The notes beneath the pieces were generated by a model that worked only from the letters and a program-made list of their open reading frames with translations, was not told where the DNA came from and did not search any database. The translations under genes and the position numbers were made by a program. From Eledone cirrhosa (lineage: Eukaryota), in the NCBI GenBank assembly GCA_964016885.1, contig OZ024740.1, forward strand, positions 150,722,001 through 150,786,000: DNA of 64,000 nt, given 5' to 3'. Shown in pieces: positions 2,224 through 62,565 of this stretch (positions are counted from its first letter, which is position 1; each line of letters opens with the position of its first letter).

Positions 2224-2281
2224 ATACCTGATGATATCACCGGATTCATACTGAACCCGGTCATTGAAATGATCATAGTAT
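2224..2281 (+). ncRNA. Type I hammerhead ribozyme
   Basis: atac-CTGATGA-t(atcaccgg...ccggtcat)t-GAAA-tgatca-TA-gtat. Stem I atac/gtat, palindromic stem III. Confidence 0.75.
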
Positions 2282-2499
2282 AATAAACCTTTCAAGGATT
2301 TACACCAGTCCAGCCCCCTGTTATTTTATAATAATTAACTCCGTACTCGCACCACCAACTACACAAACGAGGACGGGTGAGTTGCATTACGTTGAGTACT
2401 CTCCATAATATTACACCGAGATTGACCATACGGAATGACCAGTTTAATCAGTGGTGAACCAACTAACCTAAATATATATATATATATATATATATATAT

Positions 2500-5400
2500 A
2501 TACATTATGAAGAGAGAAGAAACATTTAGATATAATTAGTAATAAAATGTATCATACCTAAACTGTTCCTAAATTCCTCGACTACGTAGTTTCGTGGCAT
2601 AAACAAAAACAATATATCAAAGATATAGAGTCCTTGCGAGGTCTGCCGACTTATCAAGAGGATACCTCATTTTACTAGTCTCAAGAACGCGTCTACACGA
2701 CGTGAGAAAGAATCCCAAAAGGCGGAGGGGGAGACAGTCACGCGATATAACGGTCGAGAAACAGAGCTAAGCCTCTTATAACCACGAAGAAAATACCACG
2801 GAGGCGGAGGGGGTATTCATATCGAGGCCGTAGAAGAGGTAGTGAAGAAGGCGAGAAGTATGAGTAATGGAAGCTTTCCAGTTGTCCCCACACTTCAAAG
2901 ATTGCTCGACCAGAGGGAGTTATTAATATATTTAGAAACACACAGATACATGCGGACAAACACATATATACATGAATGCATCCGCACCCAACTGTGAGTT
3001 AAGGGTGCCAACTTCACCGATGTTGCTCAATGAATGACTGGGACAGACTAATTCAGTTTGAACCAGACTGAACCAGTATCAGAGTTAAAAATACATTATG
3101 AAGAGAGAAGAAACATTTAGATATAATTAGTAATAAAATGTATCATACCTAAACTGTTCCTAAATTCCTCGACTACGTAGTTTCGTGGCATAAACAAAAA
3201 CAATATATCAAAGATATAGAGTCCTTGCGAGGTCTGCCGACTTATCAAGAGGATACCTCATTTTACTAGTCTCAAGAACGCGTCTACACGACGTGAGAAA
3301 GAATCCCAAAAGGCGGAGGGGGAGACAGTCACGCGATATAACGGTCGAGAAACAGAGCTAAGCCTCTTATAACCACGAAGAAAATACCACGGAGGCGGAG
3401 GGGGTATTCATATCGAGGCCGTAGAAGAGGTAGTGAAGAAGGCGAGAAGTATGAGTAATGGAAGCTTTCCAGTTGTCCCCACACTTCAAAGATTGCTCGA
3501 CCAGAGGGAGTTATTAATATATTTAGAAACACACAGATACATGCGGACACACACATATATACATGAATGTATCCGCACCCAACTGTGAGTTAAGGGTGCC
3601 AACTTCACCGATGTTGCTCAATGAATGACTGGGACAGACTAATTCAGTTTGAACCAGACTGAACCAGTATCAGAGTTAAAAATACATTATGAAGAGAGAA
3701 GAAACATTTAGATATAATTAGTAATAAAATGTATCATACCTAAACTGTTCCTAAATTCCTCGACTACGTAGTTTCGTGGCATAAACAAAAACAATATATC
3801 AAAGATATAGAGTCCTTGCGAGGTCTGCCGACTTATCAAGAGGATACCTCATTTTACTAGTCTCAAGAACGCGTCTACACGACGTGAGAAAGAATCCCAA
3901 AAGGCGGAGGGGGAGACAGTCACGCGATATAACGGTCGAGAAACAGAGCTAAGCCTCTTATAACCACGAAGAAAATACCACGGAGGCGGAGGGGGTATTC
4001 ATATCGAGGCCGTAGAAGAGGTAGTGAAGAAGGCGAGAAGTATGAGTAATGGAAGCTTTCCAGTTGTCCCCACACTTCAAAGATTGCTCGACCAGAGGGA
4101 GTTATTAATATATTTAGAAACACACAGATACATGCGGACACACACATATATACATGAATGTATCCGCACCCAACTGTGAGTTAAGGGTGCCAACTTCACC
4201 GATGTTGCTCAATGAATGACTGGGACAGACTAATTCAGTTTGAACCAGACTGAACCAGTATCAGAGTTAAAAATACATTATGAAGAGAGAAGAAACATTT
4301 AGATATAATTAGTAATAAAATGTATCATACCTAAACTGTTCCTAAATTCCTCGACTACGTAGTTTCGTGGCATAAACAAAAACAATATATCAAAGATATA
4401 GAGTCCTTGCGAGGTCTGCCGACTTATCAAGAGGATACCTCATTTTACTAGTCTCAAGAACGCGTCTACACGACGTGAGAAAGAATCCCAAAAGGCGGAG
4501 GGGGAGACAGTCACGCGATATAACGGTCGAGAAACAGAGCTAAGCCTCTTATAACCACGAAGAAAATACCACGGAGGCGGAGGGGGTATTCATATCGAGG
4601 CCGTAGAAGAGGTAGTGAAGAAGGCGAGAAGTATGAGTAATGGAAGCTTTCCAGTTGTCCCCACACTTCAAAGATTGCTCGACCAGAGGGAGTTATTAAT
4701 ATATTTAGAAACACACAGATACATGCGGACACACACATATATACATGAATGCATCCGCACCCAACTACGTAGTCGAGGAATTTAGGAACAGTTTAGGTAT
4801 GATACATTTTATTACTAACTATATCTAAATGTTTCTTCTCTCTTCATAATGTATTTTTAACTCTGATACTGGTTCAGTCTGGTTCAAACTGAATTAGTCT
4901 GTCCCAGTCATTCATTGAGCAACATCGGTGAAGTTGGCACCCTTAACTCACAGTTGGGTGCGGATGCATTCATGTATATATGTGTGTGTCCGCATGTATC
5001 TGTGTGTTTCTAAATATATTAATAACTCCCTCTGGTCGAGCAATCTTTGAAGTGTGGGGACAACTGGAAAGCTTCCATTACTCATACTTCTCGCCTTCTT
5101 CACTACCTCTTCTACGGCCTCGATATGAATACCCCCTCCGCCTCCGTGGTATTTTCTTCGTGGTTATAAGAGGCTTAGCTCTGTTTCTCGACCGTTATAT
5201 CGCGTGACTGTCTCTCCCTCCGCCTTTTGGGATTCTTTCTCACGTCGTGTAGACGCGTTCTTGAGACTAGTAAAATGAGGTATCCTCTTGATAAGTCGGC
5301 AGACCTCGCAAGGACTCTATATCTTTGATATATTGTTTTTGTTTATGCCACGAAACTACGTAGTCGAGGAATTTAGGAACAGTTTAGGTATGATACATTT

Positions 5401-59558: not shown

Positions 59559-59933
59559 ATATATATATATATATATATATATATATATATTAAAATAATA
59601 GATTAAAGTTTAAGCAAAGAATCGGTGCTTTCACCCTTAACGGGATATTCTGAAACTTTAATCTGTTATTTTAATAAATATTTTGTCTAGGATTCTTATA
59701 TATTTGATATATATTTATCCTTATCGAGCCCACTTTGGATTTTAGTCTTCAAATTTATTATTATTACTATATATATATATTATATATATATATATATATA
59801 TATATATATATATATATAGAGAGAGAGAGAGAGAGAGATTTTGAGTATATGTTGGTTGAATACCAACACCTCAGTATGCAGGCTGGAGCACTTGACGAAG
59901 TGCGCAGGTTGGTTTGGTTACTCCTGAGTAATG

Positions 59934-62565
59934 TAAAATAAAGTTAAATAAAAAGTCAAATGTTTAAAATTTAGCTTCGTTTATTACTGCTATATATATT
60001 TCAGTGACAGCCATCTTTGGCTGTGACCTCTTCAGGCAGTCCGAATTAGTTTGGTATAGACAAGTACATATGTTGTTGAGGTGTATAATTTTGTCAATAC
60101 TCTGATATGTCCAGTTCCTGGTTAGGTTGTTATTTCTCTGAGGAACTGGAATCATATGAATTCAAACAAACGAATTTCAGTGTCAAAAGGCCTCTTCTCC
60201 TCTCATTGGTCAGTTGTTAGAACATTCCTCATTCTAAGTGTTGTTATTGTGGGAGTTAGCTTAAACAATTGATAAAGTGGTAGAAGGAACAAGGTGGTAA
60301 AGGAAATAATAGCAAAAAAAGTGTCAAACTTCCCATTGGTCAGTTTTGAGAGCATTCCTCAGTCAGAAGTCTATAGAATTCTTTTTGTGGTGAGGCTCCC
60401 TGTAGTGTTTGTGTTTGCTATTGTTAAGTACATTTGACCTCTACCATTATTTCGGTAGTGTTGTTGGTGTTGTGGTCAGCTTATGTCTTGCTGCTGCTGA
60501 TAATTTAGAAGTATCTGTGTGTGTTTTTTCTTCATCCCTCCTGCCACCATCTCTCATAGTGGTGGTGGTGGTGGTGGGTTAGGGTGGGGTGGGTTCTTCC
60601 ATGTATATGAAGAAATAAAGAATAAAGAATATATGAAAAATTGGTGAAAATGTAATGAAAAGGAATATGGAGAAGTGAAAAATTAAATGAAGATTCAAAT
60701 AAAGTAGGATAAAGTGTGTGTGTGCTATAACCAATCTCAAGGTCAGAAATATGTTGGATAGATTGGTATGAGGATCAAGATGTTAAAATAAGATAATCAA
60801 ACAAAATGTGTTTGTGTTATAATCAATCTCAACTTAAAAATAGATATAAGGTGATACAGTGAAGAGGGCAGAAAACAAATAACAAATTAATAAAGAGAAA
60901 TCAAGATTTAAAATTGGAACTGAAAATCAGAAATCAAGTAAATTAGAATGTGTTTGTGTTATATAGATGTTGGCCAAATTATAATGGCTGTGTCCGACTC
61001 AATCTCTAGGCTATCATGGTGTCTGCTCAGCCTGGGTTGTTCCCTATGGCTTGAGGGGAGTTCACAAACTAGGGTGTTGTTACTGCTCATATAGCTTGAG
61101 GGAGGTCTGGCCGAGAGGTGTTTACATGTTCTGTAGAAGACCCTATAGCTTGAGGGGAGTTCACATCTTCTTGTGTTGCTACTGTCCATATATCTTGAGG
61201 GAGGTCCCGGCTCTAAGGTGTCTGCATGTCCCGAAGAAGTCGATTCTGAGGTTTATCAGGCCGCTTCCACCTCTTAGTATCTCGAGGGTCTCGTTCAGGC
61301 ATAGTTTGCATATGCAAGGTCTCCCTTTATCGGGTGGTACTTTCCTGATTATCTAAGACCAGAGAGTACGGGGTCCTGTCCAGCTTAAGCTTCCAGATCA
61401 GGTCGGAGAGAGCCGTGCTCTTCCTTTTGGCCTCCTTATTGAATGAATGGCGATGGTTGTACCAGCGGTCTTTAAAGCTCGTTGATGTGGCTCCTATGTA
61501 GAGGTGTTCGGAGTTGGGGTTTTAACCCTACAACCGTATACTATGTTCTTCTTGAGGCATTCATTACCAAAGGGGCATGATTCGGGGTTTCTATAGTTGC
61601 AAATTATAATTTGGCCAACATCTATATAACACAAACACATTTTGTTTGATTATCTTATTTTAACATCTTGTTCCTCATACCAATCTATCCAACATATTTC
61701 TGACCTTGAGATTGGTTATAGCACACACACACTTTATACTACTTTATTTGAATCTTCATTTAATTTTTCACTTCTCCATATTCATTTTAATAACTTTTTC
61801 ACCAATTTTTCATGTATTCTTTATTCTTTATTCCCTATTTATTATTTATTTTCTGTTTTCTTCATTTATTGCCTTATATTTCTTCATATACATGGAAGAA
61901 CCCACCCCCACCCTCACCCACCACCACCACCACCACCACTATGAGAGATGGTGACAGGAGGGATGAAGAAAAAACACACACAGATACTTCTAAATTATCA
62001 GCAGCAGCAAGACATAAGCTGACCACAACACCAACAACACTACCGAAATAATGGTAGAGGTCAAATGTACTTAACAATAGCAAACACAAACACTACAGGG
62101 AGCCTCACCACAAAAAGAATTCTATAGACTTCTGACTGAGGAATGCTCTCAAAACTGACCAATGGGAAGTTTGACACTTTTTTTGCTATTATTTCCTTTA
62201 CCACCTTGTTCCTTCTACCACTTTATCAATTTTTTAAGCTAACTCCCACAATAACAACACTTAGAATGAGGAATGTTCTAACAACTGACCAATGAGAGGA
62301 GAAGAGGCCCTTTGACACTGAAATTCGTTTGTTTGAATTCATATGATTCCAGTTCCTCAGAGAAATAACAACCTAACCAGGAACTGGACATATCAGAGTA
62401 TTGACAAAATTATACACCTCAACAACATATGTACTTGTCTATACCATACTAATTCGGACTGCCTGAAGAGGTCACAGCCAAAGATGGCTGTCACTGAAAT
62501 ATATATAACAGTAATAAACGAAGGTAAATTTTAAACATTTGACTTTTTATTTAACTTTATTTTAT
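59934..62565. mobile_element. Naiad-type PLE 3' end as a divergent inverted pair: - arm 59934-61601, + arm 61602-62565
   Basis: The minus strand at about 61210-61600 reads CNYRNPESCPFGNECLKKNIVY / LYIGATSTSFKDRWYNHRHSF...STALSDLIWKLK / INLRIDFFGTCRH. About 950-bp inverted arms. Confidence 0.85.
59986..60040 (-). ncRNA. Naiad-associated type I HHR (mirror on + at 62458-62512)
   Basis: actgc-CTGAAGA-ggtcacagcca-aaga-tggctgtcact-GAAA-tatata-TA-gcagt. Confidence 0.82.

Follow-up and report, generated by a model that had tools for sequence, protein, structure and literature searches.

Penelope-like elements (PLEs) are known with an inverted, 5′-truncated copy at the 5′ end, mostly arranged head-to-head, and with a tail at one end only; the tail and the pseudo-long terminal repeat (pLTR) hold the start of the open reading frame (ORF), and a bias towards (TA)n targets occurs in the Hydra and Naiad groups (PMC3846280, PMC8557442; published papers are cited throughout for the parts covered here). 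The animal non-LTR retrozymes are non-coding tandem units with one type I hammerhead ribozyme (HHR) each, for which a circular template and mobilisation by PLEs have been proposed (PMC7229834, bioRxiv 10.64898/2026.07.22.740005). The origin of the tandem and inverted PLE structures and of their microsatellite bias was described as an open problem by Craig et al. 2021 (PMC8557442). Here we analyse a 64-kb stretch of Eledone cirrhosa contig OZ024740.1, positions 150,722,001 to 150,786,000 (the window), which holds elements of both kinds. The PLEs among them share with the published PLE units the head-to-head arms, the tail at one end, the ORF start within the tail and the (TA)n bias (PMC3846280, PMC8557442). 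Head-to-head polarity, one-sided tail, (TA)n bias and PLE hammerheads are already in print (PMC3846280, PMC8557442, PMC4209133). To these we add a rule for the two ends of an insertion. Judged from the sequence, the head-to-head PLEs (Neptune-type and Hydra-clade) and four kinds of non-coding ribozyme-repeat insertion were, with reasonable probability, made by twin priming on one RNA.

The contig is the largest of an AT-rich 3.0-Gb animal genome. As background we took 60 evenly spaced 10-kb stretches from contigs C1-C7 (600 kb in total); (TA)n makes up 4.9% of these samples and 5.2% of the window. About 25 of the 64 kb consist of HHR-bearing or PLE-derived arms, a few hundred bases of which are an unrelated repeat. 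An earlier note on this DNA had taken the insertions for a window-wide system. The same pattern was found in the spaced samples, so it is genome-wide and not special to the window.

The note had also proposed that the left arm is ribozyme-antisense and the right arm sense, and this was borne out. In the window, 23 two-armed insertions have that polarity; PLE1 and PLE2 are antisense on the left and sense on the right, and PLE3 is head-to-head. Polarity was also non-random across the genome. Among the first 100 exact matches to each of four families, opposite-strand neighbours no more than 5 kb apart were in the order -/+ versus +/- in ratios of 20:0, 17:0, 22:0 and 15:1, or 74:1 overall. A survey of direct junctions in 66 ten-kb stretches (the 60 spaced samples, 4 further ones and 2 adjoining the window; neighbours split by (TA)n were set aside) gave 23 -/+ and 1 +/-. 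One +/- PLE1 junction, in L142, departs from this order. A seeming tail-to-tail pair at 52165-52881 is best read as two adjoining insertions of the same family around a (TA)n tract. Of four seeming tail-to-tail pairs in the samples, the three inspected were library misassignments or neighbouring insertions, and the fourth has (TA)n between its arms. The proposed target was confirmed as well: 114 of 120 resolved outer ends lay within 20 nt of (TA)4+, against a background of 7.4%. One family B insertion (L274:215-8472) lies outside (TA)n; its target duplication, about 12 bp long, shows how far the cut was staggered.

Within each family, arms ended at one of two fixed 3′ positions. These were unit positions 88-94 and 257-259 in family A, 385-394 and 459-464 in family B, and two sites 60 nt apart in PLE1, where the tail is the ORF start. 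When both ends of a two-armed insertion were compared, one was short and the other long in 64 of 67 cases (A, B, PLE1 and PLE2 pooled). The 40 family A loci included 23 two-armed insertions, 22 with one end of each kind; the 21 family B loci included 17, of which 16 were resolved and all 16 conformed. Both ends were resolved at 21 of 41 PLE1 loci (one duplicate dropped), with one end of each kind at 19, and 7 of 30 PLE2 loci showed both ends, again one of each in all 7. Independent choice would give about half. In contigs from another public run (X4), (TA)n was attached at both family A sites, and contigs of a second run (X10) contained a -/+ joint. Many insertion ends share 2-6 nt with (TA)n. 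Target microhomology alone was rejected as the selector of the sites, since other ATAT runs are unused and the sites of family B are not ATAT runs. A shared hairpin joining both sites was seen in family A and not in PLE1 or B, and was rejected as a general rule.

The two positions are internal to the RNA. In the earlier note the 3′ ends of the arms were those of the ribozyme RNAs; we found fixed sites downstream of the ribozyme, and no arm 5′ end fell at the cleavage site (0 of 46 and 0 of 34). Self-cleavage therefore does not define the insertion ends, and the template was continuous across the ribozyme cut. A search for template jumping at the cleavage site gave no support for it, at low power, with 1 nearby event against 2.0 expected in family A and 4 against 2.0 in family B, one of the latter being the window's own allele.

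The 5′ ends of the arms vary, and the inner junctions of families A and B were spread over the whole unit, with overlaps of 1-5 nt. In family A the overlap was at least 1 nt in 20 of 23 junctions (44% at random) and at least 2 nt in 16 of 23 (16% at random). To compare the extents of PLE1 arms, coordinates were mapped on a full-length copy; this replaced a junction-support heuristic, which had misread 59082-59495. In 9 of the 19 PLE1 pairs neither arm lay within the other; the shortfall ranged from about 200 nt to more than 2 kb, and the tail was often on the much shorter arm. In L222 the second arm holds sequence that is deleted from the first. Arms of which neither contains the other were also seen in 5 of 23 family A and 1 of 16 family B insertions, counts of little power because tandem arms make containment easy.

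The two arms nevertheless carry the same alleles. A family A allele present at 17 of 40 loci was never mixed within 30 multi-copy loci and was concordant in 15 of 15 arm pairs (P=4e-5). Private alleles of family B occupied both arms, in 7 of 7 and 11 of 11 copies, the former in the window. Among PLE1 pairs, 12 of 13 shared 2-14 variants, compared with a between-locus mean of 0.73, and these included all five non-contained pairs tested. Head-to-head junctions between different families numbered 0 of 23 in the spaced samples and 1 of 154 elsewhere. These results do not bear out the idea that any HHR RNA can serve the broken ends; the two arms of an insertion derive from a single RNA lineage. That a private allele fills all 11 copies of one insertion indicates a bottleneck at the monomer, as with a circle, and we infer from the alleles and the permuted arms that the template of families A and B was probably circular. 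As arms share alleles and yet neither need contain the other, two primings on one RNA are favoured.

The mechanism that we propose is as follows. A PLE protein, which is probably dimeric, would break both strands of (TA)n, and the same RNA would then be copied from each of the two DNA ends. The protein-RNA complex would fix two internal sites on the RNA, and each target 3′-OH would prime at one of them. Both reverse transcriptases (RTs) would run towards the RNA 5′ end, the one at the long site displacing the cDNA begun at the short site. The two cDNA 3′ ends would then anneal by microhomology and be filled in. For the tandem non-coding units, the protein would be supplied in trans. Their template would be a continuous RNA derived from a monomer and in all likelihood circular, on which as many as 13 rounds of copying are made. 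The role of the ribozyme would come before this, in making the monomer, and it would not set the insertion ends. The scheme retains from the earlier note the PLE machinery, the (TA)n target, the priming of both DNA ends and the joining of the cDNAs on the RNA 5′ side, by short microhomology; it drops the supply of HHR RNAs at large and the many parasites.

Several observations weigh against twin priming on one RNA. It requires strand displacement by the PLE RT, which is putative. In vitro, both strands used both start sites of a PLE RNA alike, so that the one-of-each rule was not reproduced there (PMC11167929). The loci of families A and B and of PLE1 were best-scoring matches, biased to young and long copies and not a random draw, and 17 of the 40 family A loci are single-armed. 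Three insertions break the rule, L048 (two long ends), L218 and L213; a PLE1 long/long pair whose arms differ by 5.4% and have no variant in common probably represents two insertions, and the other PLE1 exception is ambiguous. Protein searches linked no PLE coding sequence to families A, B or F. Later asymmetric deletion at the centre of a palindrome could mimic non-containment. Variants confined to part of an array's copies occur at 5 of 40 family A and 5 of 21 family B loci; copy-to-copy conversion, duplication or mixed templates would account for them and could inflate allele sharing. For PLE1, the partner arm is strictly the nearest sequence for only 9 of 26 arms. Finally, one variant in the short arm of L048 is otherwise confined to the mirrored copy of the long arm, a pattern that fits fold-back or conversion.

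The explanation closest to the earlier note's model is dual priming on two sibling RNAs, monomers of one source transcript that would each serve one DNA end and are perhaps joined by the palindromic helix III of a dimeric hammerhead. Such an arrangement needs no strand displacement, accounts for fully overlapping arms, and gives shared alleles if one source locus made both RNAs; helix III is palindromic in most of the HHR families, and such motifs work as dimers (PMC4209133). We nevertheless consider it unlikely, as two equivalent RNAs offer no obvious reason for one short and one long end in nearly every pair, and, with more than 15 families present side by side, only about 1% of pairs are mixed. 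Two loci join a PLE arm head-to-head with a non-coding retrozyme arm (L051:1-4218 and L349:548-1839), as sibling RNAs would allow. L051 was rejected as proof of a PLE-retrozyme chimera, because its PLE part (91-97%) is more diverged than its retrozyme part (99.5%), consistent with a later insertion. In print (PMC3846280, PMC8557442) the tail is attributed to a single priming, after which the first cDNA, or an antisense RNA (PMC3846280), folds back to prime the second arm; resolution of the hairpin by the endonuclease then leaves the tail on one side. Shared alleles and same-family arms follow directly from this, many short insertions are near-perfect palindromes, and the L048 variant fits. However, one arm should then contain the other, and the containment tests argue against self-priming: the prediction fails in almost half of the PLE1 pairs, L222 runs counter to it, and junctions are spread over the whole unit. 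Fold-back is accordingly rather improbable.

Processes that duplicate existing repeats at the DNA level, such as hairpin-capped breaks at (TA)n cruciforms or fold-back DNA transposons, seem to us very improbable. Inverted duplications centred on (TA)n do exist, in 14 of 1,327 TA runs of the samples, many of low complexity, and at 40333-40368 in the window. Such processes would place (TA)n at the centre of tail-to-tail arms, reversing the polarity, and would yield neither family-specific short and long ends nor arms of unequal copy number; for the main class this origin is refuted by the 74:1 head-to-head bias together with the fixed ends. An artefact of assembly or of long-read fold-back is scarcely credible. 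The youngest arms are indeed 99.5-100% identical, but older pairs differ by 5-20% between arms, each family has its own, asymmetric ends, a target duplication is present at one locus, and the contigs of the other public runs show (TA)n at both sites (X4) and a -/+ joint (X10).

The ribozymes themselves were examined with a structure-aware scan, an intact core being defined as C3-G8 or U3-A8, GAAA and UH; the type I assignment also asks for helices I-III with helix I open. The earlier note had listed 15 type I motifs. Hammerhead-like type I sequence is present at all 15 positions, and the core is intact at 11 of them: 2224, 5283, 7202, 12090, 21478(-), 24722, 27188(-), 42090, 45288, 49061 and 59986(-). 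The copies at 51846, 52332, 55337 and 55967 are decayed. The motifs at 2224 and 42090, which the scanner had missed, were read by eye, and the motif at 45288 has a damaged stem I, its mirror copy at 45246 being intact. As the note had expected, such motifs were commoner than in shuffled sequence: the scan found 26 perfect-core matches in the window against 0-1 in each of 12 shuffles, and a second version found 25, with none in 5 shuffles; in the 600-kb sample it found 61, compared with 0-1 after shuffling. Two arrays hold 13 of the window's 25 matches. The density is about 100 intact cores per Mb, or by extrapolation some 300,000 in the genome. Folding z-scores of single motifs were weak (-2.3 to +0.4), and among the 150 of 269 Rfam matches listed, the 469-nt family alone matched the hammerhead model, under the gathering score. 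Self-cleavage of the window's motifs is predicted from their sequence. Li et al. observed cleavage in 1 of 9 elements assayed (bioRxiv 10.64898/2026.07.22.740005), so activity is not to be assumed here.

The earlier note regarded the families as unrelated and non-coding, and thereby overstated the number of non-coding parasites. At least 6 of its 15 motifs (7202, 55967, 27188, 45288, 49061 and 59986) lie in 3′ ends of protein-coding PLEs, those at 7202 and 55967 belong to related families (C and M), and most of the traceable short fold-backs are truncated ends of autonomous PLEs. Long copies of families C, M, E and G run into PLE RT/endonuclease ORFs. Family C, with 10,190 genome copies by pattern search, leads into a 770-amino acid (aa) Neptune-type ORF (L312) behind a 1.15-kb 3′ untranslated region (UTR); a short interspersed element-like RNA with a fixed 5′ end was rejected for it, as its 5′ ends vary and lead into the PLE ORF. 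Long copies of family E lead into a Hydra ORF, and those of M and PLE3 likewise into PLE ORFs; PLE coding sequence lies upstream of family M copies in L122 and L136 and of a family U copy in L230.

Pfam gave no match at E < 0.05 on the four PLE fragments of the window, and clades were therefore assigned by reading motifs by eye against Craig et al. (PMC8557442). Full-length relatives of PLE1 have ORFs of 1,056-1,167 aa with a DKSG motif, a CX4CxxC linker and a CCHH endonuclease. PLE1, C and G, read in the ORFs of L191/L192, L312 and L357, show a single ORF with RT followed by a C-terminal GIY-YIG domain, a DKG-type motif, a CX2-5CxxC linker and CCHH; they are Neptune-type by motif only, the linker being common to the Neptune and Nematis clades. 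The Hydra clade is marked by an RWK-like motif, DKT, a CxCX5C linker, the absence of CCHH and a (TA)n target. PLE2 shows RWR, DKT and CxCX5C, and E, PLE3 and PLE4 show the linker alone of these diagnostics, in partial ORFs. The complete PLE insertion unit, with a pLTR bearing an HHR, an inverted 5′-truncated copy and a tail at one end, is present in L191. The PLE1 ORFs (L191:3748-6915, L192:3188-6688) have an Asn-rich insert of variable length upstream of the RT, which recalls the N-rich inserts of rotifer Penelopes.

Families A, B, F and I consist of tandem non-coding units with one type I HHR each, as in retrozymes; the units measure 591, 469, about 1,250-1,300 and about 310 nt, respectively. 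Only these four families were shown to be non-coding. The tandem array of family I was seen in L039, its window copies being decayed. The family A insertion of the window has a 4-nt overlap at its junction and (TA)n on both sides, and the locus-private allele of the family B insertion is found in all 7 copies. No PLE coding sequence was found in the shared upstream sequence examined of families D, K, O, P, Q and R, a result to be set beside the length of the family C 3′ UTR. Spacings of 3.4-4.9 kb between family K copies suggest that this family may be a PLE end. Family P, at 12090, is hardly ever paired; among 100 matches there was one -/+ and one +/- pair. It has 2,559 exact copies, and their 3′ ends often run into (AC)n. 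Its nearly always single arms (11937-12215, 30314-30440) and frequent (AC)n ends suggest a different mobiliser or mode of priming. The features of the window are collected in the table.

Table. Ribozyme-bearing and Penelope-like insertions of the window (coordinates are window positions)
Feature	Position	Strand	Description
Family A, 591-nt unit	2500-6201		left arm 2500-4766 antisense, 3.8 copies, short end (unit 92)
Family A, right arm	4763-6201		sense, 2.4 copies, long end (unit 257)
Family B, 469-nt unit	22641-26000		left arm antisense, 4.2 copies, short end (390); right arm sense, 3.0 copies, long end (464)
Family F, head-to-head	41324-42290		HHR core 42095; tandem non-coding unit elsewhere
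Family I	52165-53047		single sense arm 52165-52457 and head-to-head 52574-53047 in one (TA)n tract
Family D, fold-back	14123-14330		truncated inside stem II
Family D, other fold-backs	40830-41031, 41058-41232, 44505-44595		complete D HHR at 21568(-)
Family K, fold-back	55306-55552, also 26983-27111
Family P, single arm	11937-12215	+	HHR at 12094
Family O, single arm	2190-2471	+	HHR at 2229
Family Q	51800-51960	-	decayed HHR 51934(-)
Family R, arms	31399-32390	+	intact HHR 32086; absent from the earlier note's list
PLE1, 5′-truncated Neptune-type PLE	46628-49249		left arm antisense, long end with 60-nt tail; right arm sense, short end; neither arm contains the other
PLE1 ends, short head-to-head pair	59077-59560
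PLE2, 5′-truncated Hydra-clade PLE	53048-55296		left arm antisense with tail; right arm sense with ORF remnant 53797-54984
PLE3, Hydra-type, head-to-head	59839-62567		antisense endonuclease remnant 61360-61601; HHR 60035(-)
PLE4, Hydra-type, single antisense arm	49305-51780	-	ORF remnant 50926-51774
PLE4 ends, short head-to-head pair	59583-59766
Family C, fold-back	6953-7310		Neptune-type PLE ends; long end left, short end right
Family C, fold-back	12253-12614		short end left, long end right
Family C, further arms	21845-21949, 26034-26975, 46207-46421
Family M, fold-back	55714-56121		related to C; HHR of this copy decayed
Family E, two fold-backs	27137-27516 and 27571-27873		ends of Hydra-type PLE
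Family G, fold-back	45064-45489		ends of Neptune-type PLE with 4.2-kb tandem unit
Family U, head-to-head pair	6235-6919		unrelated repeat inserted mid-pair

Some further observations were made in passing. A fold-back at 19604-19806, outside the earlier note's list, belongs to another abundant HHR family, one in which helix III is long. Short inverted duplications that have a (TA)n run at their centre and a polarity opposite to the PLE pattern were seen at window positions 40319-40382 and in L068 and L137, and L117:199-5249 contains nested insertions, each near the centre of the preceding palindrome. In family B arms of L266, L279 and L268, variants recur every 2 or 4 copies, a possible trace of multimeric templates or of later duplication. 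Family A (window positions 4600-5650) was detected in public runs (X1-X20) of 17 organisms from 16 studies, 9 of the organisms having at least half of its words. Its copies in six contig runs are 95-99+% alike and have in common an allele unseen in the 40 genome loci compared; recent spread between species, close kinship or contamination may be responsible. The window also contains a two-ORF long interspersed nuclear element (LINE) on the + strand at 34795-40002 with long open frames (a 578-aa ORF1 and a 1,156-aa ORF2 with endonuclease, RT and zf-RVT), and LINE 3′ fragments at 12902-13956. L048, the sole family A insertion with two long ends, lies in this LINE family.

Compared with described systems, these insertions differ in defined respects. 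In published PLEs the tail is optional and 30-40 bp long; here it is near-obligate on exactly one arm and measures about 60-165 nt in the families measured. The main text of Cervera and de la Peña 2020 (PMC7229834) on animal retrozymes contains neither of the words 'inverted' and 'microsatellite', and insertion ends are not described in the parts covered of Li et al. 2026 (bioRxiv 10.64898/2026.07.22.740005), whereas the retrozymes here form two-armed arrays with the two-site footprint of PLEs. Family F, at about 1.3 kb, exceeds the published retrozyme range of 51-972 bp. The PLE hammerheads of Cervera and de la Peña 2014 (PMC4209133) likewise have a short helix I, a palindromic helix III, U3-A8 and an extra base preceding helix II; opposite-strand pairs at distances of 100-700 bp were ascribed there to truncated PLEs. 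Unlike those, several families here have a long helix II or III, and the density of intact cores reaches the value given above. Anole Poseidon in vitro (Frangieh et al. 2024, PMC11167929) also cleaves AT-rich DNA, with extension of both strands; its tail is delimited by two internal start sites, ribozyme cleavage is not needed and a dimer is predicted. Its use of the sites was not strand-specific and the priming site was not homologous to the target, whereas here many ends match (TA)n over 2-6 nt and each insertion uses each site once. A further parallel is L1, for whose twin priming Ostertag and Kazazian 2001 is reportedly cited as well. In L1 twin or dual priming (Meyer et al. 2010, PMC2837659) the second target end also primes on the RNA, and an inverted 5′ arm is joined by microhomology. 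There, however, no overlap exists between the arms, the position of the second site varies and such events are occasional, whereas here both sites are fixed, overlap extends up to kilobases and the event is common. Our literature search found no paper with a strict one-short-one-long rule, with twin priming for PLEs or with this footprint in retrozymes.

The elements are of known kinds and their layout is mostly published for PLEs; the value of the finding lies in a quantified footprint of two sites and one template that is common to two PLE types and retrozymes. The short/long rule, the shared alleles and the non-contained arms together give sharp predictions for the existing in vitro system, and a pair of polymerases that starts at defined internal sites and copies a single RNA into the two sides of a programmed break would be of interest for RNA-templated insertion tools. 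More tentatively, and with slightly more doubt than belief, we suggest that twin priming may be the default route of endonuclease-bearing PLEs, with an RT-endonuclease dimer allotting to either side of the break a fixed RNA site of its own. The two-site signal would be mimicked by non-coding ribozyme circles, which two polymerases would copy round at once, and the roughly 300,000 ribozyme copies of this genome would be a readable record of the PLE mechanism and of the retrozyme life cycle.

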